64,000 nucleotides of DNA from Clostridia bacterium (GCA_045592585.1 JAZNVB010000026.1:7849-71848); one strand, 5' to 3'. Numbered from the stretch's first letter, positions 6,240 to 54,763 are shown. Notes: a model not told the origin generated them from the sequence alone. A program made the numbers and translations.

Positions 6240-7568
<1,329 letters not shown>

Positions 7569-7645
7569 TATAATTAAATAAAATACAACACTTTTTCACC
7601 TTTTTTGCAAGAAAAAGTTTTACAAATTTTTCCAGACGCTATTCT

Positions 7646-11993: not shown

Positions 11994-12171
11994 GGAGGAA
12001 TTTAATGTGAATGTTTTTTCACATTATTGCCTCCGGCAGATTTGATTGCCCATGCGAAATTTTTTTCGCTTTCGCTCAAAAACGCATATGGGCGTAAAAA
12101 TCTCTTATCATTCCTTGCCATACGGATAAGAGAAATTTAATTATATTTGTGCCGACGTATGGCGGCGGAAT
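11994..12171 (+). ncRNA. Structured SD-to-SD cassette, unit A1 (first unit of a tandem dimer)
   Basis: - Opening SD: GGAGG 11994-11998.
- P1: AATGTGAA/TTCACATT.
- Anti-SD: CCTCC.
- P2: GCCC 12048-51, ATGCG 12052-56 ... CGCAT 12083-87, bulge AT, GGGC 12090-93.
- P3: TCTCTTATC/GATAAGAGA.
- Loop CCATACG pairs with tail CGTATGG.
- Ends at the next GGAG. Confidence 0.75.
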
Positions 12172-12358
12172 GGAGATTAACGTGAAAGTTCCTTTCCCGT
12201 TAAGCCTCCGGCAGATTTGATTGCCCATGCGAATTTTTTTTCGCTTTCGCTCAAAAACGCATATGGGCGTAAAAATCTCTTATCATTCCTTGCCATACGG
12301 ATAAGAGAAATTTAAAATTATATTTGTGCCGACGTATGGCGGCGGAATGGAGATTTTT
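12172..12358 (+). ncRNA. Structured SD-to-SD cassette, unit A2. Ends at the SD and ATG of the cofE-like gene.
   Basis: - P1: 12179-12201.
- CCTCC: 12205-09.
- P2: 12223-12268.
- P3: 12276-12308.
- Pseudoknot: CCATACG 12293-99 with CGTATGG 12333-39.
- SD helix: GGAATGGAGATTTTT 12344-58 is complementary to AAAAATCTC 12271-79 and CATTCC 12284-89. Confidence 0.75.
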
Positions 12359-20873: not shown

Positions 20874-21389
20874 TTATTTCTCTCCTTTCTGCTGATTTTC
20901 TTTAAGCTCGTTTATTTTGTCACGCAGGGTTGCGGCTTCTTCAAAGTTCTGTTCCATAACTGCGCGATTAAGCTTTGTTTGCAACTGTTCAATTTGGTCG
21001 GCGGTTTTTATATCCTTGCCTGCCCTTGCTGGGATTTTGCCTGTGTGATGCGTGCTGCCGTGAATTTGCTTTAAAGGCCGCAACAGCAAATCCTGAAACA
21101 CGGTGTAACAGTTGCAGCAGCCTGGCTTCCCTGATTTAATAAATTGACCTTGGGTCATTCCGCACAAATCACATTTTTTGGTGGGCACGCTTGATGAAAT
21201 CTTTGGCTGGCTGCCCCACAATCCGTTAAACAGACTGTCAAACTCGGTGTCGAAGCCCGATTTAAAGCTGAAAAAGTCCTGATTTTCTTCGGCACATTCC
21301 CGGCAAAGATACATTTCGGTTTTATGACCGTTGATTATCTGTGTTATATGTGTGGTTGCATCGTTCTGATTACATTTTTGACATTTCAT
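20874..21389 (-). CDS. mcsA: McsA (UvrB/C-motif, zinc-finger activator of McsB)
   Basis: MKCQKCNQ...CRECAEE CxxC pairs and a C-terminal UVR motif (MEQNFEEAATLRDKINELK). Start taken at the second Met (21389). Confidence 0.85.
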   Translation of the reverse strand: MKCQKCNQNDATTHITQIINGHKTEMYLCRECAEENQDFFSFKSGFDTEFDSLFNGLWGSQPKISSSVPTKKCDLCGMTQGQFIKSGKPGCCNCYTVFQDLLLRPLKQIHGSTHHTGKIPARAGKDIKTADQIEQLQTKLNRAVMEQNFEEAATLRDKINELKENQQKGEK

Positions 21390-21406
21390 AAAGAAAACCA
21401 TCCCTT

Positions 21407-21850
21407 CTAAACAAGATTTACCAATATATTTTTAAGCATTTTTGCCCGTACTATGTCACGCTCGGGGCGGCTGATAATAATTGAATTGTCGCTGAGTGCC
21501 GCCATAATAATTTTTGCTTCCTTGTGTGTTAAAAGCTCTGCGGAATATAGCTCGTTGATTACCGCATTGGCACTTGCCGATGTAATGCTGTTCCCGATTG
21601 CATTGACTATATGCAGAATAAGATGTTCGTTTTCGGGAACAGTTTTGGTTATCCTGATATACCCACCGCCGCCACGCCGGCTTTCAACGCTGTAGCCCCT
21701 TTCGGGAGAGAAGCGGGTGGATATAACATAGTTTATCTGTGAGGGAACACAGTTAAACCGATTTGCAAGTTCGTTTCGCTGCAGTTCAATCTCACGGCTT
21801 TCCTCAAGCATTTCCTTGATAAATTCTTCTATTATATTACTTAGTTTCAT
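21407..21850 (-). CDS. ctsR: CtsR, class III stress gene repressor
   Basis: N-terminal SNIIEEFIKEML... and the glycine-rich RRGGGGYIRI loop. Confidence 0.9.
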   Translation of the reverse strand: MKLSNIIEEFIKEMLEESREIELQRNELANRFNCVPSQINYVISTRFSPERGYSVESRRGGGGYIRITKTVPENEHLILHIVNAIGNSITSASANAVINELYSAELLTHKEAKIIMAALSDNSIIISRPERDIVRAKMLKNILVNLV

Positions 21851-21872
21851 CTTATATCACCTCTAAGTGTTT

Positions 21873-21903
21873 TTTGACTTTGACTTTCTTTGACCTTGAC
21901 TTT
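21873..21903 (-). promoter_or_regulatory. CtsR operator array. Core GGTCAAAGAAAGTCAAA (minus strand, 21895-21879) flanked by two further GTCAA(A) half-sites.
   Basis: Matches the RGTCAAA-NAN-RGTCAAA consensus. Lies between the predicted -10 and the ctsR SD. Confidence 0.8.
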
Positions 21904-21931
21904 ATTATAGCAAAAATTTTTCTTTTGTCAA
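21904..21931 (-). promoter_or_regulatory. Sigma-A promoter of the ctsR operon (TTGACA 21931-21926, TATAAT 21909-21904)
   Basis: Both hexamers are perfect on the minus strand, with 16 nt spacing. Confidence 0.7.
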
Positions 21932-21947
21932 TAGGTTTTTGTAAAAA

Positions 21948-21964
21948 AGTCAGGAAAGGTCAAA
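21948..21964 (+). promoter_or_regulatory. Second, imperfect CtsR-like box AGTCAGGAAAGGTCAAA
   Basis: One good heptad and one degenerate heptad with the correct 3 nt spacer. A further GTCAAA lies at 21982-21987. Confidence 0.4.
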
Positions 21965-21990
21965 TTTTTTTAAAAAAATTTGTCAAATGT

Positions 21991-22019
21991 TTGCAATTAT
22001 TGATGATTTAGTATATAAT
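21991..22019 (+). promoter_or_regulatory. Candidate sigma-A promoter for madL (TTGCAA-17-TATAAT)
   Basis: Hexamers at 21991-21996 and 22014-22019. Confidence 0.45.
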
Positions 22020-22061
22020 AAACTGGTTTGAAAAAAAGCAAGCAAAAAAGGAAAGGAATGA

Positions 22062-22445
22062 TTGTTTGTGATTTATGGTGTAGCATTACTTGCGGGCTGT
22101 ATGTTTGTAGGTTCATTCATCGGAAACATTCTCGGCCTCCTTACAGGGGTTAACTCAGATGTTGGCGGTGTTGGATTTGCAATGTTATTGCTTTTGATTG
22201 TAACAAATTCAAAAAAGATAACTTCATGGTTGCCCAAGGATTATGAAAAGGGTATTGATTTCTGGAGTAAAATGTTTATTCCTGTAATCATAGCAATGTC
22301 TATGTCACAGAATGTTATTGCTGCTCTTTCTCAGGGTTGGCTTGCCATTGCGGCAGGGCTTGGAGTTGTTGCGGTAGCATTTATGTTTGTACCCATTCTC
22401 AATAAATTGGCTCCCGATAAAGCAGATAAGGAGGATGCAGAATAA
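22062..22445 (+). CDS. madL: Malonate transporter subunit MadL-like membrane protein
   Basis: (M)FVIYGVALLAGC...NSDVGGVGFAMLLLL resembles MadL. Start is TTG 22062 or GTG 22068. Confidence 0.65.
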   Translation: MFVIYGVALLAGCMFVGSFIGNILGLLTGVNSDVGGVGFAMLLLLIVTNSKKITSWLPKDYEKGIDFWSKMFIPVIIAMSMSQNVIAALSQGWLAIAAGLGVVAVAFMFVPILNKLAPDKADKEDAE

Positions 22446-23259
22446 TGAAAGCGATACTTGATATTATAGCAGATATATTTATCAGCAACGGATTTGTAAT
22501 GGCATTCCTTATTGTAGGTATTGTGGCAATGTTCTCAAACTTTGTTTCAACAAAGATAACAAAGGGCAGGATACATAATTCCGCAATAGCAATTTTCCTG
22601 GGTCTTGTTCTTGCCTACATTGGTGGAATAATTGCTACTAAATATGGTGTCAGCAATGGCTGGATTAAGGATGTAAGTGCAGCAAAAAAGGTCTTGCAAA
22701 TATACCTGTATTTGCAGGAATCGGTGTTCTTGGCGGTTCATCCCTTCGTGACTTTGCCATAGTTTCAACAGCTTTTGGTGCAAAGATGTCTGAAATTAAA
22801 AAGTGTGGACTTATCGGTGGTGTTTCACTCCTGATAGGTATTGTTGTTACATTTATAGTAGGCGTGCTTATTTCTGTTGCATTTGGTTACACAGATGCAG
22901 TAAGTGCTTCAACCATTGCTGCAGGAACTGTTACCTTTGTTGTTGGCCCTGTTACCGGCGAAGCTCTCGGTGCCACAGATACAGTTATCACAATTTCTAT
23001 TGCAGCAGGTGTTGTTAAGTCGATTGCTGTAATGATGCTTACCCCTGTTGTGGCAAAAAAGATTGGCCTTACCACACCCCGTGCGGCAATGATTTTCGGT
23101 GGTCTTATGGGAACAACCAGCGGAACTTCTGCAGGTCTTGCTGCAACAGATGCAAAGCTTGTGCCCTACGGCGCAATGACCGCTACATTCTATACAGGTC
23201 TTGGTTGCCTTTTGTGCCCCACAGTTCTCTATTATCTGACAACATTATTCCTGCACTAA
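22445..23259 (+). pseudogene. madM: MadM-like transporter subunit interrupted by a -1 frame change at an A_AAA_AAG site (track ORFs 22445-22762 and 22786-23259)
   Basis: The 0 frame ends at TAG 22760-22762. The -1 frame from 22690 reads GLANIPVFAGIGVLGGSSLRDFAIVSTAFGAKM and continues into the 157 aa ORF. Together they give a MadM-sized protein. Confidence 0.7.
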
Positions 23260-23402
23260 AGCAGAACAATCTACAATTACATATAAAGGCGATTTGTGCG
23301 AATAACAAATCGCCTTTATTCTTTTTAATGGTATTGCATTTGTTGCAATTTTGAGATATAATATAATATTGAATTCAATAGAATTGGAACGGTGCTGACA
23401 CA

Positions 23403-24119
23403 ATGACAAAAGAAAAATCACAGAATTCATATCTGTATGGATTAAACAAGGGGCTTCCCATTGCACTTGGTTATCTTTCGGTATCCTTTGGGTTTGGTAT
23501 TACCGCAGTGGGAATGGGTATTAACCCCATCGGCACAATACTTATATCATTAACAAATCTGACCTCGGCAGGTCAGGTGGCAGGTATTGGTATTATTGCC
23601 GCCTGCGGAGCTATTATCGAAATGATTCTGGCGCAGCTTGTTATAAATATGCGGTACAGCCTTATGGGATTGGCTCTTACCCAAAAGCTGGATGGCAGTT
23701 TTACCACCCCTCACCGTATGATTACCTCCTTTGCAATAACCGACGAGGTCTTTGCGGTTGCGGCGGCAGAAAGGGGTCTTATTGGCAGAAGGTTTATGTA
23801 TGGTCTGATAACTCTGCCACCTGTTGGCTGGACAATGGGTACGACTTTGGGTGTGTATGCAGGGCAGATTTTGCCGCCATCGGTGTGCGCGGCGCTGGGA
23901 CTTGCCATTTACAGTATGTTTATTGCCATAATTATTCCACCTGCAAAGGCTGATAAGGGAGTTTTGTGTGCGGTGCTTATTGCCTCGGCAATGAGTTGTG
24001 CATTTTATTATATCCCGATATTTGACGGACTTTCGCAAGGCTTTTCAATTATAATATGCGCCGTTGTTGCATCGGGAATAATGGCATATATCGCACCAAA
24101 GTCAGGGGAGGAGGAGTAA
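23403..24119 (+). CDS. azlC: AzlC-family branched-chain amino acid permease component
   Basis: Typical AzlC N-terminus (GLPIALGYLSVSFGFGI) and size. Followed by azlD. Confidence 0.85.
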   Translation: MTKEKSQNSYLYGLNKGLPIALGYLSVSFGFGITAVGMGINPIGTILISLTNLTSAGQVAGIGIIAACGAIIEMILAQLVINMRYSLMGLALTQKLDGSFTTPHRMITSFAITDEVFAVAAAERGLIGRRFMYGLITLPPVGWTMGTTLGVYAGQILPPSVCAALGLAIYSMFIAIIIPPAKADKGVLCAVLIASAMSCAFYYIPIFDGLSQGFSIIICAVVASGIMAYIAPKSGEEE

Positions 24120-24278
24120 CGTGATAAACACGTTATCAATAATTAAATGCCCGTGCGATATTTTCGCCGGGGCGAAACGCACATGGGCAAATATCTATTA
24201 TACGCCTTATCTGCCCACGATATGGTGTAATATGTTTTCACGTTATGATTTGTGGGCTGAAAGGCTATGGATATTTAT
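24113..24278 (+). ncRNA. Structured SD-to-SD cassette, unit D (monomer between azlC and azlD)
   Basis: - Opening SD: GGAG 24113-16 overlaps the last azlC codons.
- P1: AACGTG 24118-23 with CACGTT 24129-34.
- P2: GCCC 24149-52, GTGCG ... CGCAC, bulge AT, GGGC 24185-88.
- P3: CCTTATC 24205-11 with GATATGG 24219-25.
- Pseudoknot: GCCCAC 24213-18 with GTGGGC 24252-57.
- SD helix: AAATATC 24189-95 with GATATTT 24270-76. Confidence 0.65.
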
Positions 24279-24584
24279 ATGAATAAAATGTTTTTTGCGT
24301 ATCTTGCCGCCATGGCGTTGGTGACATACTTTATCCGCATGATTCCCTTTACCCTGATGCGCAGCAAAATAAAATCACCTTTTATACAGAGTTTTTTGTT
24401 CTATGTGCCATATTCGGTACTTGGGGCGATGACCTTTCCCTACATTCTTTATGCCACGGGAAATATGCTTACTGCGGCGCTGGGTACTGCGGTGGCATTT
24501 GTTCTTGCATATTTTGGACGGTCACTTTTGACTGTTGCAATTTGTGCCTGTGCTGTTGCATTTGCGGCAGGCTTGATTTTTTAA
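24279..24584 (+). CDS. azlD: AzlD-family branched-chain amino acid transport protein
   Basis: Small 4-TM protein following azlC. Start ATG 24279 chosen by analogy with the other cassette-to-ATG spacings. The track start is 24267. Confidence 0.8.
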   Translation: MNKMFFAYLAAMALVTYFIRMIPFTLMRSKIKSPFIQSFLFYVPYSVLGAMTFPYILYATGNMLTAALGTAVAFVLAYFGRSLLTVAICACAVAFAAGLIF

Positions 24585-24653
24585 TAAAATAAAATAAAAG
24601 AATAGACCAAACAGCAGAAAGATAAAATATTGATAGAAAAAGGAGTGACAAAT

Positions 24654-25937
24654 TTGAGAACAGAGAAAATTGAAATTTCAAAGGGTGTATCCTTGCGTTT
24701 TCTTGAAACCGATAAATTCAAGACAAATGTGATGAGTATATGTTTCAGGCTTCCCCTTGAAAGAAAAACAGTTACAAAGATAGCTCTTTTGCCAAGAGTT
24801 TTAAAGCGAGGCAGCGAAAAATATCCCACGATGAGTGACCTTTCAAGAAGGGCTCAGGAGCTTTACGGTGCATCGCTTTCGGCAGATAACGGCAAACGTG
24901 GCGACCTTATGCTCCTTCGGGTATCGGTGCAGTTTGTCAGCGACAGCTTTATTTCGGAAAGTATTATCGGCGACGTTTGCGAACTGCTTAAGGAGTTTGT
25001 TCTTTGCCCGGTGACAAAAGACGGAGCTTTTGACAAGGTATATGTTCAGCAGGAAAAGGAGAATACCAAAAACTATATTTTGGGGCTTATAAATGATAAA
25101 AAGGAATATGCGGCTGTTCGCTGTAATGAAATTATGTTCGAGGGTGACCCCTACGGAATAATTTCTCACGGATATATAGAGGACCTTGAAGAAATTGACG
25201 AAAAGAATCTTTACGAGTTCTATAAGGAAATGATTAAAACCGCAGCGGTTGACGTTTATGTCAGCGGAAGCTTTGACAAGACTGCGGTGAAAGGTGAGAT
25301 TGAAAAGAACTTTAAAGAGGCGTTTTGCGACCGTGATACATTAGTTTGCGAAACTAAACTTGCTAAGGTTGAAGAAAATATTGAGGTTAAGAATGTTGTT
25401 GAAGAAATGCCTGTTTCGCAAAGCAAGCTGGCAATGGGCTTTAACTGCGGCATTGACCCAAGGTCGGATGAGAGCTATGCCCTTGCCCTTTGTTCGTGCC
25501 TTTATGGCGGAAGTGCAATTTCAAAGCTTTTTAACAATGTCCGTGAAAAGCTCAGCCTTGCCTATTATGTATTTTCGGCGGTTGACCGTCACAAGGGTTG
25601 TATGAAGGTGAATGCAGGGATTGAAGCATCAAAGTATGACGAGGCGTTCAATGAAATAATGCTTCAGCTTGATATGATGAAAAAAGGCGAGTTCACTGAC
25701 GAAGAAATTGATTTTGCCAAAAAGACATTCAAGAATTCAGCAGGCAGCATAAAAGACAGTTTGGTTGCAACCGAGGACTTTTATATGAGCCGTGCTTTGC
25801 TTGGCGTTGAAGAATCTGTTGACGAGTACCTTGAAAAAATTAACAAGGTAACACGTGAGGAGATAGTTGCTGCAGCAAATAAAATACAGCTTGATACAAT
25901 TTACTTTTTGAAGGGGGTACAGGGCAATGAAATTTGA
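24654..25937 (+). CDS. M16-family (insulinase-like) protein lacking the zinc motif, YfmF-like
   Basis: Peptidase_M16 fold pattern with no HxxEH. Paired with the catalytic partner downstream. TTG 24654 follows AGGAG plus 8 nt. Confidence 0.7.
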   Translation: MRTEKIEISKGVSLRFLETDKFKTNVMSICFRLPLERKTVTKIALLPRVLKRGSEKYPTMSDLSRRAQELYGASLSADNGKRGDLMLLRVSVQFVSDSFISESIIGDVCELLKEFVLCPVTKDGAFDKVYVQQEKENTKNYILGLINDKKEYAAVRCNEIMFEGDPYGIISHGYIEDLEEIDEKNLYEFYKEMIKTAAVDVYVSGSFDKTAVKGEIEKNFKEAFCDRDTLVCETKLAKVEENIEVKNVVEEMPVSQSKLAMGFNCGIDPRSDESYALALCSCLYGGSAISKLFNNVREKLSLAYYVFSAVDRHKGCMKVNAGIEASKYDEAFNEIMLQLDMMKKGEFTDEEIDFAKKTFKNSAGSIKDSLVATEDFYMSRALLGVEESVDEYLEKINKVTREEIVAAANKIQLDTIYFLKGVQGNEI

Positions 25938-27222
25938 ATTGACAGAAAATAAGGCTCTTAAGGAAAGTATCCTTTCAGGCGTTCACGAAAGCGGGCTGCG
26001 GGTGTATATTATCCCCAAACAAGGTTTCAGCAAGTATTATGCCATTTACGGCACCGAATACGGCTCAATTGATGATGTATTAAAGCTTCCTGAGGGCGAA
26101 ATCAAGCTCCCTGACGGAATTGCACATTTTCTTGAACACAAGCTTTTTGAAGAGGAAGACGGCAAGGATGCCTTTGAAAAGTTTGCGGCAACGGGCGGCA
26201 ACAGTAACGCGTTTACGAGCTTTGATATGACGGCATATCTGTTTTCCTGCACCGAGAATTTTTACGAAAATCTTGACATTCTTCTGGAATTTGTCAACAA
26301 CCCCTATTTCACCGATGAAAATGTGGCCAAAGAGCAGGGAATTATCGGTCAGGAAATCAAGATGTATGACGACGACCCCAACTGGCGGCTGTTCTTCAAT
26401 ATGCTTCAGGGTATGTATCACAACAACCCTGTAAAGACCGATATTGCAGGCACGGTTGAAAGCATCAGCAATATAAATCCTGAACTTCTGTACAAGTGCA
26501 CAAAGGCATATTACAACCCGTCAAATATGATTTTGGTTATGGTGGGCGATATCGACCCTGAAAAGGCGGTATCTTATATTGATAAATATGTAAGTCCCGA
26601 AAAAGATATGGGCAAGATTGAAAAACGGAAAGTTGACGAGCCTGATACAGTAGTTAATAAAATTGTTCGCCAGAAGTTAAGTGTTTCAAAGCCTCAGTTC
26701 CTTATTGGATTTAAGGAGAAGGAAGAAGGGGTTAAAGGCAGAGAACTGCAGCTTAAACAGATAAAAACCCAGATTTTAATGGAAGTTCTGTTTGGCAAAA
26801 GCAGTGAATTTTTCACCGAACTTTACGGCGAGGGCATTATTGATGCAACATTCGGATATGATACCGAGCTTGAGGTTGGCTACGGCTTTTCGTCAATAAG
26901 CGGCGAAAGCTCAAAACCCGAAGAAGTTTATGAAAAAACTCTTGAATATGTGGCAAAAATGGCGGCAAAGCCTCTCGATAAAGGAGCGGTTGATGTTGCA
27001 AAGCGAGTGCTTATCGGCAAGAATTTAAGACGGTTTAACAGCGTTGAACGTCTGGGTAATGACTTTATCCGTTGCTTTATGAGTGGCATTAACCCCCTTG
27101 AATACAGCGACCTTGTTCAGCAGGTTACCATTGAGCAGATTGAAGAAAGGTTAAAGGAGCACTTCGACACAGAATCTTGTGTACTTTCTATAATTGAACC
27201 TTTGGACGGTGAAGACAAATGA
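25927..27222 (+). CDS. M16-family zinc peptidase, YfmH-like
   Basis: Inverted zinc motif HFLEH (GIAHFLEHKLFE) and M16 N- and C-domains. Confidence 0.8.
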   Translation: MKFELTENKALKESILSGVHESGLRVYIIPKQGFSKYYAIYGTEYGSIDDVLKLPEGEIKLPDGIAHFLEHKLFEEEDGKDAFEKFAATGGNSNAFTSFDMTAYLFSCTENFYENLDILLEFVNNPYFTDENVAKEQGIIGQEIKMYDDDPNWRLFFNMLQGMYHNNPVKTDIAGTVESISNINPELLYKCTKAYYNPSNMILVMVGDIDPEKAVSYIDKYVSPEKDMGKIEKRKVDEPDTVVNKIVRQKLSVSKPQFLIGFKEKEEGVKGRELQLKQIKTQILMEVLFGKSSEFFTELYGEGIIDATFGYDTELEVGYGFSSISGESSKPEEVYEKTLEYVAKMAAKPLDKGAVDVAKRVLIGKNLRRFNSVERLGNDFIRCFMSGINPLEYSDLVQQVTIEQIEERLKEHFDTESCVLSIIEPLDGEDK

Positions 27223-28022
27223 TAAATACTATATCTTTTCCTAACCTTGGCTGGGAGTTTACGATAAGCCGCACAGCCTTTGAAATTTTCGGAACGCCCG
27301 TATATTTTTACGGGCTTCTGATTGGCATGGGTTTGTTACTTGCGGTTGTATATGGCTTGTATGAAACAAAGCGGGTTGGTATAGACCACGACGATATGTT
27401 TAATATGCTGCTTATTGCTCTGCCTGTTTCAATTATTTGTGCCCGACTTTATTATGTAATTTTTCAGTGGGATTACTACAAGAATAATCTGTTGGAGATT
27501 TTAAACATTCGTGGCGGCGGAATTGCCATATACGGCGCGGTAATTGGTGCGGCAATAGTGGTTTTTACATATTGTATTATAAAAAAACTCAGTATTGCCA
27601 AGTGTCTTGATGTTTTGTCCATTGGTTTGCTTATTGGTCAGGCAATTGGCAGATGGGGCAATTTTGTCAACGGCGAGGCATTCGGCTCGCAAACCAACCT
27701 TCCCTGGGCTATGACAATTGTTCAGGATGGTTTATTGATTGCACAAAAGGTTCACCCAACATTTTTATATGAGTCTTTGTGGAACGTTTTGGGTATTGTT
27801 TTGCTGTGGCTTTACCGCAAGCACAAGAAGTTTGAAGGCGAACTGATTTGCGGATATATGATATGGTACGGCTTGGGAAGAATGATGATTGAGGGACTTC
27901 GGACCGATTCGTTAATGCTTGGTAATTTCCGTGTTTCACAGCTTCTTTCGGTAATTCTGGTTATTGCGGGAATTGTAATTGTAATTTTAAAAAGAAAATC
28001 TGCAAAAACACTTGACAAATAG
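27219..28022 (+). CDS. lgt: Prolipoprotein diacylglyceryl transferase
   Basis: GRWGNFVNGEAFG signature and a polytopic profile. Confidence 0.9.
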   Translation: MINTISFPNLGWEFTISRTAFEIFGTPVYFYGLLIGMGLLLAVVYGLYETKRVGIDHDDMFNMLLIALPVSIICARLYYVIFQWDYYKNNLLEILNIRGGGIAIYGAVIGAAIVVFTYCIIKKLSIAKCLDVLSIGLLIGQAIGRWGNFVNGEAFGSQTNLPWAMTIVQDGLLIAQKVHPTFLYESLWNVLGIVLLWLYRKHKKFEGELICGYMIWYGLGRMMIEGLRTDSLMLGNFRVSQLLSVILVIAGIVIVILKRKSAKTLDK

Positions 28023-28040
28023 AAATTTTTGAGTTACAAT
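28012..28040 (+). promoter_or_regulatory. Sigma-A promoter (TTGACA-17-TACAAT) for ylxM-ffh
   Basis: Hexamers at 28012-28017 and 28035-28040, overlapping the lgt 3' end. Confidence 0.55.
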
Positions 28041-28094
28041 AGCTGAGGTGTAAAGTTAGATTGCTTTACAGCAAGGGATAAAGGAGTGGAAATT

Positions 28095-28466
28095 ATGGAA
28101 AAAAACGTTGAAATTTCTCTTCTTTTGAGTTTTTACAAAAATATGCTTACAAATAGGCAGGCAGACACCGTTGAACTATATTACAACGAGGATTTGTCGC
28201 TTTCAGAGGTGGGTGCCGAGCTTGGGATAAGCCGTCAGGGTGTTCGTGACAACCTGAAACGTGCCGAGGCGATTCTTTATGATGTTGAGTCAAAGCTGGG
28301 GCTGGCTGCAAGGTTTATTGAAATTAAATCAAAGCTTGGCGAGATTGATGATATTATTGCCGAGATTGAAAAGTCACCCGAGGCAAGGCTGCTTCCTGTA
28401 AGCATAAAAAAACAGATAAACCAGATTCTTACAATTGTTGCAGGAATTAACGATTTAGAGGAATAG
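28095..28466 (+). CDS. ylxM: YlxM (UPF0122) putative DNA-binding protein
   Basis: Sigma-70 region-4-like HTH (LSLSEVGAELGISRQGVRDNLKRA). Conserved position upstream of ffh. Confidence 0.85.
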   Translation: MEKNVEISLLLSFYKNMLTNRQADTVELYYNEDLSLSEVGAELGISRQGVRDNLKRAEAILYDVESKLGLAARFIEIKSKLGEIDDIIAEIEKSPEARLLPVSIKKQINQILTIVAGINDLEE

Positions 28467-28497
28467 TGATACATATTTTGATGAAGGAGTGAGGCGT

Positions 28498-29859
28498 ATG
28501 GCATTTGAAAGTCTTGCAGATAAACTGCAAAACGCATTCAAAAAACTGCGTGGCAAGGGCAAAGTTTCGGCAGCCGATTTAAAAGAAGCCATGCGTGAGG
28601 TTAAACTGGCACTCCTTGAGGCCGATGTCAATTTCAAAGTTGTTAAAAACTTTATAAACACCGTAACTGAACGTGCATCAGGTGCCGAGGTTATGGAATC
28701 TCTTACCCCCGCACAGCAGGTTATAAAAATTGTTAACGAAGAGCTTGTTGCTCTTATGGGTACAGAAGAACAGAAAATTAAAATTTCTTCCAGGCCCCCC
28801 ACGGTTATTATGATGACAGGTTTGCAGGGTGCAGGTAAAACAACCACCGCCGCAAAGCTTGGCGGACTTTTGAAGAAACAGGGCAAACGCCCCTTGCTTT
28901 GTGCCTGCGACGTTTACCGTCCTGCGGCAGTTAAGCAGCTTCAGGTTGTGGGCTCTCAGCTTGACCTTCCGGTGTTTGCAATTGAAGGCAACACCAATCC
29001 TGTTGAAATTGCCGAAAAAGCTCTGCAGCATGCAAAGCTTCATTCCAATGATATTCTTATTGTGGATACAGCAGGACGTCTTCACATTGACGAAGAGCTG
29101 ATGAATGAACTTAAAAACATCAAGGCAAAGATAGACCCCACAGAAATTCTTCTTGTGGTTGACGCAATGACAGGTCAGGATGCGGTGAATGTTGCCGAGG
29201 CCTTTAATAATGATTTGGAAATTGACGGTGTTGTCCTTACCAAGCTGGACGGCGACACCCGTGGCGGTGCGGCACTTTCTGTTCGCGCGGTTACAAACAA
29301 GCCTATCAAGTTCTGCGGTATGGGCGAAAAGCTTACCGACCTTGAGGTGTTCCATCCTCAAAGAATGGCGTCAAGAATTTTGGGCATGGGCGATATGCTC
29401 AGTCTTATTGAAAAGGCTGAACAGGCTCTTGACGAAAAAAAGGCTCTTGAACTTGAGCAGAAGATGCGCAGCAACACATTTACATTTGCTGATTTCCTTG
29501 ACCAGATGGAACAAATGAAAAAAATGGGACCTCTGGAACAACTTATCGGGATGATTCCCGGTATGAATACAGCACAACTTAAGGATGTGCAGATTGACGA
29601 GAAAAAGATGCTTCATACCGAGGCGATAATCAAGTCAATGACAATCGGCGAAAGGGAAAATCGTGACAAGCTCACACCAAAACGCCGTGAGAGAATTGCA
29701 AAAGGCAGCGGTACCACCGTTGCTGATGTGAATGCGCTTGTCAAGCAGTTTGAACAGATGCAAAAAATGATGAAGATGATGTCCGGCGGCGGATTTGGAA
29801 AGAAAATGAAGCATTTGGGTAAAATGGGCAAGATGGGAAAAATGAAGTTTCCCTTCTGA
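28498..29859 (+). CDS. ffh: Signal recognition particle protein Ffh
   Basis: MAFESLADKLQ..., GLQGAGKTTT, DTAGRL, TKLDGD, and a Met-rich C-terminus. Confidence 0.97.
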   Translation: MAFESLADKLQNAFKKLRGKGKVSAADLKEAMREVKLALLEADVNFKVVKNFINTVTERASGAEVMESLTPAQQVIKIVNEELVALMGTEEQKIKISSRPPTVIMMTGLQGAGKTTTAAKLGGLLKKQGKRPLLCACDVYRPAAVKQLQVVGSQLDLPVFAIEGNTNPVEIAEKALQHAKLHSNDILIVDTAGRLHIDEELMNELKNIKAKIDPTEILLVVDAMTGQDAVNVAEAFNNDLEIDGVVLTKLDGDTRGGAALSVRAVTNKPIKFCGMGEKLTDLEVFHPQRMASRILGMGDMLSLIEKAEQALDEKKALELEQKMRSNTFTFADFLDQMEQMKKMGPLEQLIGMIPGMNTAQLKDVQIDEKKMLHTEAIIKSMTIGERENRDKLTPKRRERIAKGSGTTVADVNALVKQFEQMQKMMKMMSGGGFGKKMKHLGKMGKMGKMKFPF

Positions 29860-29911
29860 TTTAACTAAAGAAAATTATTAAATTATATATATTTTTTGGA
29901 GGTAATTTATT

Positions 29912-30154
29912 ATGGCAGTAAAAATTCGTTTAAGAAGAATGGGTTCTAAGAAGGCTCCTTTCTACAGAGTGGTAGTAGCAGATTCAAGATACCCCAGAGA
30001 CGGCAGATTTATCGAACAGGTTGGAACATACAATCCTATGACAAAGCCTGCAGCAGTTGATTTTGATGCTGAAAAGGTTGCAAAGTGGATTGGTAATGGT
30101 GCTCAGCCCACAGATACAGTTAAGCGTCTTCTTAAAGAAAAGGGCATTATCTAA
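29912..30154 (+). CDS. rpsP: 30S ribosomal protein S16
   Basis: [26 protein letters not shown]. Confidence 0.97.
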
Positions 30155-30238
30155 TTTTAAATGATATTGAGGTCGGCTCGTACCCTTTAACAGTAAGGGT
30201 ATGGGCAGGCTATTGACCCGGATTTTGGAGGAAAAGAA

Positions 30239-30466
30239 ATGAAAGAGCTTTTGGAATTTATTGCAAAATCAATGGTTTCAGAGCCTGATGCAGTTTCGAT
30301 TGAAGAAAATGTTCAGGAAAACTCGGTTGTTTTGACCTTGCACGTTGCCGAAGGCGATATGGGTAAGGTTATCGGCAAGCAGGGAAGAATAGCAAAGGCT
30401 ATCCGCACTGTTGTTAAGGCGGCTGCAAGCCACGAAAACAAAAAAGTTACGGTTGATATTGTGTAA
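30239..30466 (+). CDS. KH-domain RNA-binding protein (YlqC family)
   Basis: GKVIGKQGRIAKAIRTV motif. Position between rpsP and rimM. Confidence 0.9.
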   Translation: MKELLEFIAKSMVSEPDAVSIEENVQENSVVLTLHVAEGDMGKVIGKQGRIAKAIRTVVKAAASHENKKVTVDIV

Positions 30467-30536: not shown

Positions 30537-30714
30537 GAGGAATTTAACGTGAAAGTTCCTTTCACGTTAAGCCTCCGGCGGATTTGATTGCCCGTGTGAG
30601 ATTTTCCTCGCGTTTGCTCGGAAACACACATGGGCGTAAAAATCTCTTATCATTCCTTGCCATGCGGATAAGAGATATTTAATTCCTATTTGTGCCGACG
30701 TATGGCGGCGGAAT
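30537..30714 (+). ncRNA. Structured SD-to-SD cassette, unit B1
   Basis: - Opening SD: GAGGA 30537-41.
- P1: perfect 10 bp, AACGTGAAAG 30546-55 with CTTTCACGTT 30559-68.
- Anti-SD: CCTCC.
- P2: GCCC 30590-93, GTGTG ... CACAC, bulge AT, GGGC 30632-35.
- P3: 30643-30675.
- Loop CCATGCG pairs with tail CGTATGG (one G-U pair). Confidence 0.75.
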
Positions 30715-30902
30715 GGAGATTAACGTGAAAGTTCCTTTCCCGTTAAGCCTCCGGCGGATTTGATTGCCCGTGTGAGATTTTCCTCGCGTTTGCTCGGAAA
30801 CACACATAGGCGTAAAAATCTCTTATCATTCCTTGCCATACGGATAAGAGATATTTAAGTCCTATTTGTGCCGACGTATGGCGGCGGAATGGAGATTTTT
30901 AT
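30715..30902 (+). ncRNA. Structured SD-to-SD cassette, unit B2. Ends at the rimM SD and ATG.
   Basis: Same architecture as A2, and near-identical to it outside P2. A G-to-A change at 30808 weakens P2a (AGGC instead of GGGC). GGAG 30891-94 lies 8 nt before ATG 30903. Confidence 0.75.
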
Positions 30903-33208: not shown

Positions 33209-33353
33209 AAAAGTGTTTTGATTAAAGCACATCAACTCCCCTGCCCCTCACTCTTGAGGGGATTAAGGTACACTTTATTTGTAATATAGGAAATTACGGA
33301 AATCGGAACGATTTAGTCGTTTTATATATTAAAGAAAAACGGAGGAAAATTTG

Positions 33354-37939: not shown

Positions 37940-38120
37940 GGAGATATAACGTGAAAAATCACGTTAATCACTATATTTAAATTGCACCGTCGAAATTTTC
38001 GCACAAAGTGCGAAACGACGATGTGCGTAATCTCCATTTCACGTCTTATCTCGCCCACGGATAAGAGACAGGGGATTTAAAATATAATCATTTGTGGGCG
38101 GAAAGACTATGGAGATTAAT
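37940..38120 (+). ncRNA. Structured SD-to-SD cassette, unit C (monomer upstream of rsfS)
   Basis: - Opening SD: GGAGAT 37940-45.
- P1: AACGTGA 37948-54 with TCACGTT 37959-65.
- P2: GCAC 37984-87, CGTCG 37988-92, TTTCGCAC/GTGCGAAA, CGACG 38016-20, bulge AT, GTGC 38023-26.
- P3: TCTTATC 38044-50 with GATAAGA 38060-66.
- Pseudoknot: CGCCCAC 38052-58 with GTGGGCG 38094-100.
- SD helix: TAATCTCCAT 38028-37 with ATGGAGATTA 38109-18. Confidence 0.75.
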
Positions 38121-53886: not shown

Positions 53887-53965
53887 GTTGTTTTGGAGTA
53901 AAATAAAGTTGAATTATTTACATTTTTTTTCTTTTATGATAATATTGAAAAATGGAGGAGATTTT

Positions 53966-54763
53966 ATGCTTATAGATATTCACACACACGTATTCCCTGA
54001 AAAAATTGCCCAAAGGGCGATTGAAACTTTGAGTCATACATCAGGTGGACTTATACCGCAGCATAAGGGGACTCTTGCAAGCCTTAAAGAAGAAATGGCA
54101 AAAGACGGAGTAGACATTTCGGTGGTTTTGGGGATTGCCACAAACCCTCATCAGCAGACAAATGTTAATAACTTTGCGGCCGAGATAAACAAGGACGAAA
54201 AAATTGTTGCCTTCGGGTCGGTGCATCCCGATGCCCCCGATGCGCTGGATGAGCTTGAACGTATTAAGGCTCTGGGACTTAAAGGTGTTAAACTTCACCC
54301 TGAGTATCAGAATTTTTTTGTTGATGACGAGAGGATGAAGCCTATATACGAAAAAATCTCACGACTTGGACTTGTAACACTTTTCCATGCAGGGCATGAT
54401 TACGGCTACGGCGAGCCATTTCACTGTATGCCGCAAAATTTAGAACGTGCGCTAAAATGGTTTTCGGCACCTGTTATTGCGGCTCATTGGGGCGGCGCAG
54501 GTTGCAAGGATTTAGTAATAAAACACTTAGCAGGCAAGGATGTGTGGTTTGATTTGTCCTTTGGATATGGTAATATGCCAAAGAGCTTTGCTCAGGAAAT
54601 TGTGGACAAGCACACCCCCGACAGACTGCTGTTTGGCTCGGATATGCCCTGGCACAGACCATCATGGGAGGTAAGGCTGATTGAGTCCTTAGACCTTTCG
54701 TCACAGGATAAGGAAAAGATATATTACAAAAATGCAGTCCGGCTTTTGGGTTTGGATATATAA
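53966..54763 (+). CDS. Amidohydrolase-family (TIM-barrel metal hydrolase) protein
   Basis: MLIDIHTHVFP start, HPEYQ, AHWGG. ATG 53966 follows GGAGG. Confidence 0.7.
   Translation: MLIDIHTHVFPEKIAQRAIETLSHTSGGLIPQHKGTLASLKEEMAKDGVDISVVLGIATNPHQQTNVNNFAAEINKDEKIVAFGSVHPDAPDALDELERIKALGLKGVKLHPEYQNFFVDDERMKPIYEKISRLGLVTLFHAGHDYGYGEPFHCMPQNLERALKWFSAPVIAAHWGGAGCKDLVIKHLAGKDVWFDLSFGYGNMPKSFAQEIVDKHTPDRLLFGSDMPWHRPSWEVRLIESLDLSSQDKEKIYYKNAVRLLGLDI

Follow-up and report, generated by a model that had tools for sequence, protein, structure and literature searches.

In a 64,000-nt stretch of DNA from a Clostridia bacterium (GCA_045592585.1, JAZNVB010000026.1:7849-71848; the whole stretch is referred to below as the window), the genes azlC and azlD are held apart by a structured spacer, cassette D (24117..24278, + strand), which is probably a young copy, with its structure intact, of a non-coding mobile cassette ~170-190 nt long. 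An earlier reading of this DNA, made from the sequence alone (hereafter, the sequence-only reading), had described D as a member of a repeated structured unit, which is borne out by six copies in the window, all on the + strand. The same reading had drawn attention to a 53-codon frame that runs through D and might chain the translation of azlC and azlD, while allowing that the frame may be due to chance. Results here favor chance, as the length and phase of such frames vary across copies of the cassette.

Cassette D and the empty azlC-azlD junction

azlC occupies positions 23403..24119 (+ strand; from the open reading frame (ORF) list and Pfam PF03591), and azlD positions 24279..24584 (+ strand; from Pfam PF05437 and junction sequences). 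The 3' end of azlC reads GAG GAG GAG TAA, with GGAG at 24113-16 and the stop codon at 24117-19, and this TAA also forms the first three bases of D (TAACGTG). From there, the cassette extends to the base preceding the azlD ATG. The positions that the sequence-only reading had given for the azlC stop, the GGAG, a GTG at 24121, the 53-codon frame, and the azlD ATG at 24279 all agree with the sequence and the ORF list. No promoter-like or terminator-like signal was found within D.

The azlC loci of relatives were retrieved via AzlC homologues (sequences from other genomes are designated by L numbers). D is missing from nine relatives with 78-98.5% nucleotide identity (L001-L006 and L125-L127), in which only 4-5 nt lie between the azlC stop and the azlD ATG, confirming the earlier expectation that the two genes are normally adjacent and that a spacer between them is out of the ordinary. 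The identity of AzlC to that of the window was 83% in L006, 87% in L003-L005, 93% in L127, and 95% in L001. Closest to the window are L125 and L126, with an identity of 98.3% over 21226-24103 and 98.6% over 24278-30275, and both carry 16 nt in place of 174 nt of the window (24104-24277). Such near-identical flanks without the cassette mean that D is a presence/absence difference at about the species level. Exact-protein look-ups with AzlC, AzlD, and P0130 of the window, and with the 53-aa product of the frame, yielded no orthologous copies of D, nor did a D-specific 24-mer have any match in the JGI metagenomes.

Comparison with the empty alleles shows the spacer to be an insertion, and a recent one, with the cassette landing in the 4-nt azlC-azlD junction. 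azlC now ends at a TAA that coincides with the 5' end of the cassette, and the old Shine-Dalgarno (SD) sequence of azlD, within the last azlC codons, is left 160 nt upstream of the azlD start. azlD itself now starts behind the cassette's own 3' module (GGAU-N6-AUG).

Copies, targets, and mobility of the cassette family

D was matched to the family by nhmmer and is a copy of type B, GGAU subtype. The other copies in the window are the type A pair U12a (12003..12177, +; first unit of a tandem pair) and U12b (12178..12358, +), which ends at the ATG (12359) of an F420-ligase-family gene; the type A pair U30a (30545..30720, +; the leading unit of the pair ahead of rimM) and U30b (30721..30902, +), which ends 2 nt before the rimM ATG (30903); and the type B copy U37 (37947..38120, +), located between a LytR-family gene and rsfS. 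One genome per species was scanned with a pattern for the shared P2/P3 core of the fold (described below), which returned at least 118 stretches, and full copies were confirmed by nhmmer. Among the matches listed, at least about 90 were full-length by nhmmer, and the full copies were all in metagenome-assembled genomes (MAGs) of gut or rumen Clostridia from human, ruminant, and chicken guts. Host MAGs include the Oscillospiraceae-like Congzhengia and Ructibacterium, "Ruminococcus sp.", Oscillospiraceae, and others. The few scan matches in other phyla were not confirmed by nhmmer and are regarded as chance matches to the pattern. A pattern for the 3' end of the GGAU subtype found one paralogue of D (L132).

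All full copies that were checked run directly into the start of an ORF or into the next tandem unit. Their 5' flank is a purine-rich SD followed by A/T, with the SD core ending 1-7 nt before the TAACGTG of the cassette. Cassettes are inserted in one orientation between the host SD and the start codon. About half of the copies are at junctions inside operons, and 11/85 copies resemble the azlC case in that the stop of a long open frame from upstream falls in the first 10 nt of the cassette. No ORF is carried by the cassettes themselves, and tandems consist of two or three units. Target genes include the housekeeping genes rimM, rsfS, murG, aroC, and dapA, and there is no regulon: the 74 downstream proteins match 111 Pfam families, none of them more than two times.

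Occupancy also differs between relatives at other sites. The rimM site is empty in L138, whose rimM is 99.2% identical, and in L001, and is filled in the more distant L080. The window has an unoccupied target site, GGAGGAGATTTTATG (53954..53968, +), and at the orthologous site, L105 has two cassettes in tandem with GGAGATT on either side. U37 is present in 5/5 of the sister-strain contigs found, and the genome supplying L001 has cassettes at other loci (e.g., L118). The sister-strain contig L139 begins inside the U12b cassette, as expected where a repeat breaks assembly. Tandem partners are mutual nearest relatives, with 92%-97% identity compared to 78%-91% between loci, which points to local duplication, and the head-to-tail arrangement of tandems can be explained by a cassette 3' end that mimics the target.

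Several copies depart from the common form. A predicted viral contig from IMG/VR (IMGVR_UViG_3300031555_010414) carries a full type B cassette, very like U37, ahead of a gene (L130:6889-7082, - strand), and L090 ends with a junction similar to that of L130. Another copy (L089) is interrupted by ~260 nt (7163-7261 and 7522-7613). In L106 and L116, ATA rather than ATG directly follows the cassette, and the nearest usable starts are 3-8 nt further downstream. Two type B copies (L026:4922-5018 and L038:5393-5461) have an extra ~60-nt domain between the P4a 5' strand and P5. A distant variant (L010:5289-5407 and L062:3766-3886) has a wholly different P1 (GUGUAAGUCUGAAAG/CUUUCAGACUUACAC) and a P4a of UGACCAU/AUGGUCA, with the architecture kept. 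Elsewhere in the window, a MadM-like gene (22445-23259) appears split into two ORFs (105 and 157 aa) and is a single 271-aa gene in L125; the split may be a frameshift or an assembly error.

Fold of the cassette and the 53-codon frame

D folds to the family consensus with a minimum free energy of -58.1 kcal/mol (z -3.64; 0/200 shuffles as good), and its predicted structure retains the elements that the sequence-only reading had listed, i.e., P1, P2 with its AU bulge, P3, the pseudoknot, and a helix with the region before the ATG. The P1 hairpin (24116..24136, +; 24116-23 paired with 24129-36), supported by the fold and by covariation, holds the GTG at 24121. It is followed by the P2/P3 core (24149..24188, +), which reads GCCC-GUGCG, a 4-nt 5' bulge, P3, CGCAC, the AU bulge, and GGGC in the predicted fold. 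The 5' strand of the long-range helix P4a, AAAUAUCUAU (24189..24198, +), comes next, followed by the local hairpin P5 (24201..24229, +; 24201-11 with 24219-29). The P5 loop GCCCAC (24213-18, +) forms the 5' strand of the pseudoknot and pairs with GUGGGC (24252..24257, +), after which comes an invariant GAAAGGCU (24259-66). The P4a 3' strand, AUGGAUAUUU (24267..24276, +), carries the SD-like GGAU, and 2 nt separate its end from the azlD ATG.

A mixed alignment of both types allowed RNAalifold to recover only P1, P2, and a short 3' helix; hence, the copies were split by type. RNAalifold and pair counts for each subfamily then gave P1, the P2/P3 core with two bulges, P4a, P4b, and P4c in both types. 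P4a pairs AAWAAUCUC (5' strand) with GAGAUUWUU (3' strand) in type A, and AAUUUCCAU with AUGGAAAUU in type B; it buries SD-like purines (GGNN) and ends ~3 nt before the AUG. In the type B alignment, which includes D, 95.2% of cells are paired, compared to 37%-45% when partners are slid, and 22 pairs are changed on both sides, with 0/500 shuffles reaching any of five measures. Helix 1 (P1) has 95.9% of cells paired and three pairs with changes on both sides, helices 2 and 3 (P2/P3) have five such pairs each, and helix 4 (P4a) also covaries, as does the pseudoknot (pair 146-196: CG22/UA3). Per-copy folds show covariation in the outer stem of P5 (AUACGC/GCGUAU, UUAACGC/GCGUUAA, UUAGCG/CGCUAA, and ACACGC/GCGUGU). 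G-U pairs outnumber A-C pairs in both types (298 vs 74 in type A, 55 vs 26 in type B), indicating that the + strand folds as a single strand. The folding molecule is most likely RNA rather than + strand single-stranded DNA (ssDNA).

The sequence-only reading had regarded the downstream SD of D as degenerated to GGAT, which the family alignment contradicts. Type B copies have GGAA (15), GGAU (4), GGAG (3), GGGA (2), or GGUG (1) at the SD-like position, and the opposite strand of the helix changes to match in every variant (pair 124-212: UA17/AU4/CG4). GGAU, which D has in common with L114, L116, L059, and L132, is hence one of five covarying P4a variants, and D, which folds to the consensus, is not a decayed copy. 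D has one G-U pair where the other GGAU-type copies show C-G. The P4a 3' strand also contains an AUGG in nearly all copies, which precedes the host AUG by 12 nt and shares its reading frame (encoding MDIY, or MEII in others). In D, this AUG (24267) is in frame with azlD (ORF 24267-24584). The P4a AUG, if used as a start, could add four residues to the host protein.

In type A cassettes, a hairpin formed by UCUCUUAUC and GAUAAGAGA shares four bases with P4a, such that the hairpin and the SD pairing compete. A CCUCC after P1 is able to pair with the displaced host SD (GGAGG) in 62/78 non-tandem copies; D and U37 are without it. There was no copy-specific covariation between host flank and linker overall (mean of -7.36 kcal/mol for matched pairs and -7.33 kcal/mol for permuted pairs). 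In three exceptional copies (L072, L040, and L015), bases after P1 complement the copy's own host flank (e.g., GGUAAA with UUUACC), and P1 is 14-15 bp long.

The P2/P3 core is the most conserved module of the family and is common to a separate intergenic element, here called type C, which shares only this core (TTGCCCGTGCAAAATTTTCGGC..GCCGAAATGCACTTGGGCAAA) and has other flanking hairpins. Type C was found at L001:19140-19290, and also in L025, L063, L084, L098, and L109. It is present in L001 and absent at the orthologous site of the window (~33300-33345), and so varies between relatives too. No obvious transposase was seen beside type C elements.

The 53-codon frame of D (GTG to TGA; 24121..24282, +) appears in the ORF list, and its TGA (24280-82) overlaps the azlD ATG (24279-81) as ATGA, while the azlC stop and the GTG are arranged as UAA-C-GUG (24117-23). 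The geometry of translational coupling is thus present in D, where the start adjoins the upstream stop and the stop overlaps the downstream start. The overlapping TGA is created by a G-to-A change at 24282, in azlD codon 2, which is AAT in the window; the junctions read from relatives have GAT or GAC there. The sequence-only reading had put the chance of such an open frame at a few percent. This is correct for random sequence, where 2.6% of composition-matched shuffles remain open (52 codons). Within the family, each of the three frames carries ~2 stops and 10%-12% of frames are stop-free. The frame exists because this copy happens to be without stops in one frame, and we regard it as open by chance and not conserved in the family.

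Comparisons across copies also do not support the earlier proposal of a mini-ORF starting in P1 as a selected feature, as its start codon, frame, and stop position are not conserved. Relative to the host ATG, the codon at the P1 position is spread evenly over the three phases (type A, 16/20/19; type B, 9/7/7). ORFs from the P1 GTG range from 6 to 69 codons, with four more reading into the host gene, and 12/64 reach at least 53 codons. By inspection, the P1 position holds GCG, GGG, GAG, CUG, or GUA instead of a start codon in ~15% of copies, and in some of them the 3' arm has changed in compensation. Given this lack of conservation in phase, stops, and length, the frame is not under coding selection. 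Nor does coupling of azlC, the ORF, and azlD appear to be a selected arrangement, since the arrangement and the frame are not conserved in homologous GGAU-type units, with 6 codons from P1 in L114, 6 in L132, 62 in L116, and read-through in L059.

It could still be argued that GTG 24121 starts a real 53-codon ORF whose translation opens up the cassette, so that termination-reinitiation links azlC, the ORF, and azlD. The geometry at both ends (UAA-C-GUG and AUGA) is real, the upstream GGAGGAGGAG has no anti-SD in D to mask it, and the P1 of D is only 8 bp long. In addition, over the 140 nt right of the D junction, the change creating the TGA is the only position that differs from L125, and with the SD-like GGAU locked into a 10-bp helix, azlD translation would benefit from ribosomes that come from upstream. 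Nonetheless, we consider such an ORF unlikely, given the unconserved frame, phase, and start codon described above. Moreover, linker indels are not multiples of three, the GTG itself sits within the P1 stem, and the 53-aa product has no Pfam match and no gene with the exact product on record in the assembly collection. Translation of the frame is mechanistically possible in D alone, because the azlC stop lies 1 nt before the GTG and D is without the CCUCC anti-SD; together with the G-to-A change, this allows for an incidental contribution of the frame to azlD translation in this copy.

Proposed working, alternative readings, and comparison with known systems

Several observations weigh against D being a mobile cassette that acts through RNA. 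Rather than inserting cleanly, the D allele has 174 nt where 16 nt were replaced, and the 80 nt left of D (24024-24103) are 15% diverged from L125, compared to ~1.2% further out, with the twelve mismatches in this tract spaced at multiples of 3 nt. The D allele may hence have come by recombination, rather than by transposition in this lineage. A near-identical source copy of D was not found, its nearest relatives in the sample being L116 (the best match, 84.9%) and L114 (83.5%). Alignments show no terminal inverted repeats (the 5' end TAACGTGAAAG... does not read as the reverse complement of the 3' end ...GGAATGGAGATT) and no target-site duplication (at rimM, the left flank is the host's GAGGAATTT and the right end is the cassette's GGAGATTT). 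Neither a mobilizing enzyme nor an autonomous copy was found in the 64 kb of this genome or in 8-kb pieces of others. The excess of G-U over A-C pairs also fits a + strand that folds as ssDNA, and we infer transcription, folding, and any effect on azlD from anatomy.

We nonetheless consider it probable that the + strand transcript folds into P1, the P2/P3 core, a hairpin with pseudoknot, and the closing helix P4a, which pairs the SD-like GGAU with the upstream strand and ends 2 nt before the AUG. As P4a would hold the GGAU, azlD translation would depend on the opening of P4a, and the cassette would be a portable translation-initiation module that may be regulated. A broader proposal, which we put forward tentatively and at somewhat less than even odds, is that the family is a new selfish-but-tolerated RNA cassette, which targets the SD-to-AUG spacer of arbitrary genes, masks the host SD with CCUCC, supplies gated initiation, and thereby puts many unrelated genes under common translational control, with the frame in D perhaps co-opted to carry ribosomes from azlC to azlD.

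The cassette could instead be a purely DNA-level element, such as a non-autonomous HUH/Y1 relative (an IS200/IS605-type PATE), the fold of which serves ssDNA transposition while the RNA fold and the SD helix are incidental. The lack of terminal inverted repeats and of target-site duplication, the strand-specific orientation, and the pairing of both ends with internal sequences would suit such an element, as would a 3' end (GGAGATT) that mimics the target (host GGAG plus A/T) and would explain head-to-tail tandems; G-T wobble would also give an equal bias of G-U over A-C. However, no transposase was found in the sequence searched (64 kb and 8-kb pieces), and the insertion point, always after an SD-like flank and A/T, varies from 1 to 7 nt past the SD core, which does not clearly match insertion beside a fixed tetra- or pentanucleotide. 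A nested, pseudoknotted fold of ~170 nt far exceeds the needs of IS200/IS605 ends, and a covarying helix that reaches exactly to the start codon points to a role in translation. We therefore consider this explanation improbable.

Precise deletion of an ancestral D from all relatives compared is very unlikely, as 9/9 relatives at 78%-98.5% identity are without D, no direct repeat flanks it, and the empty alleles retain a normal 4-5-nt junction and their own stop codons, even if SD-like direct repeats flank the cassette at other sites and could mediate precise loss, and at rimM the cassette occurs in L080 and not in L001 or L138, which are closer to the window. There is similarly little chance that D is no mobile element but one regulated member of a regulon, governed by an ordinary cis-regulator passed on vertically, such as a riboswitch or protein-binding leader, for which the covarying pseudoknotted fold with an SD-sequestering helix, the type A hairpin that competes with P4a in the manner of a riboswitch expression platform, and the tandem arrangements known for riboswitches would speak, since the element comes and goes between strains that are 98%-99% identical, precedes unrelated genes, has six copies within 64 kb and one in a viral contig, breaks an assembly, and forms tandems of mutual closest relatives (92%-97% identity).

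Should the reading of a mobile, translation-gating cassette be correct, one small element would be resetting translation initiation, again and again, in unrelated genes of abundant uncultured Clostridia from gut and rumen. It would represent a naturally occurring "portable ribosome-binding site" that carries its own structural gate, and a source of strain-level differences in expression. Strains that are 98%-99% identical and differ only by a cassette would offer a ready natural experiment. In practice, the cassette causes breaks in MAG assemblies and spurious calls of small ORFs, such as the 53-aa frame in D.

Searches of Rfam 15 gave no matches at gathering scores across the whole window, and only low-scoring unrelated families at E ≤10 for D, U12, and U37. 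No tRNA or tmRNA was found, and no description of the cassette family was found in the searchable literature, including by a search with literal sequence strings. Translational riboswitches of the preQ1-II/III and SAM-II types hide the SD in a pseudoknot or long-range helix. The cassette resembles these platforms in its compact, covarying, pseudoknotted fold, in the pairing of SD-like purines beside the start codon, and, in type A, in its competing local hairpin. Unlike riboswitches, it has no functionally coherent set of downstream genes, no known ligand, and no Rfam match, and it is present or absent in near-identical strains, at high copy number, with tandems arising by local duplication. 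Integron attC sites, with RYYYAAC...GTTRRRY core sites and a length of 57-141 bp, occur in arrays of ORF-carrying cassettes. The P1 arms do contain AAC and GTT, but the hairpin spans ~25-32 nt, no ORF is carried, and tandems are limited to two or three units, which does not fit an attC. A group I or II intron, a k-turn, and the GAAA tetraloop-receptor motif were likewise considered and set aside.

Among mobile elements, IS200/IS605 elements and PATEs similarly lack inverted repeats and target duplications, insert strand-specifically 3' of a recognized motif, have an end that resembles the target, and have ends that pair with internal "guide" bases. The cassette differs from IS200/IS605 in that TnpA and TnpB were not seen (64 kb and 8-kb pieces), in its variable spacing to the motif, and in a larger fold that includes the host start region. 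IStrons and mobile introns are likewise built so that host gene expression survives insertion, and pairing of the 5' flank with an internal guide-like sequence is paralleled by the host GGAGG and cassette CCUCC (62/78). In contrast to IStrons, the cassette matches no group I/II intron model in Rfam, shows no sign of splicing, falls short of the size of known self-splicing introns, and sustains expression by carrying its own SD rather than by self-excision.

Of the features of classical miniature inverted-repeat transposable elements, the cassette shows multi-copy presence/absence among close relatives, but neither terminal inverted repeats nor target-site duplication. The Correia repeats of Neisseria, ERIC of enterobacteria, and BOX/RUP of pneumococci have terminal inverted repeats and usually target-site duplications, and occur in both orientations at variable distances from genes. 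Like these, the cassette is short, non-coding, multi-copy, and strain-variable, and is predicted to fold as RNA and be co-transcribed with host genes. Unlike them, it has neither inverted repeats nor duplication, is found in one orientation, ends at the start codon, and supplies an SD and spacer. The cassette thus fails at least one defining feature both of SD-sequestering riboswitches and of Correia/ERIC-type repeats. The family, undescribed in Rfam 15 and the searchable literature, is best filed with small non-autonomous mobile repeats with RNA structure, from which it stands out by inserting strictly into the SD-to-AUG spacer and by bringing along a gated initiation region.

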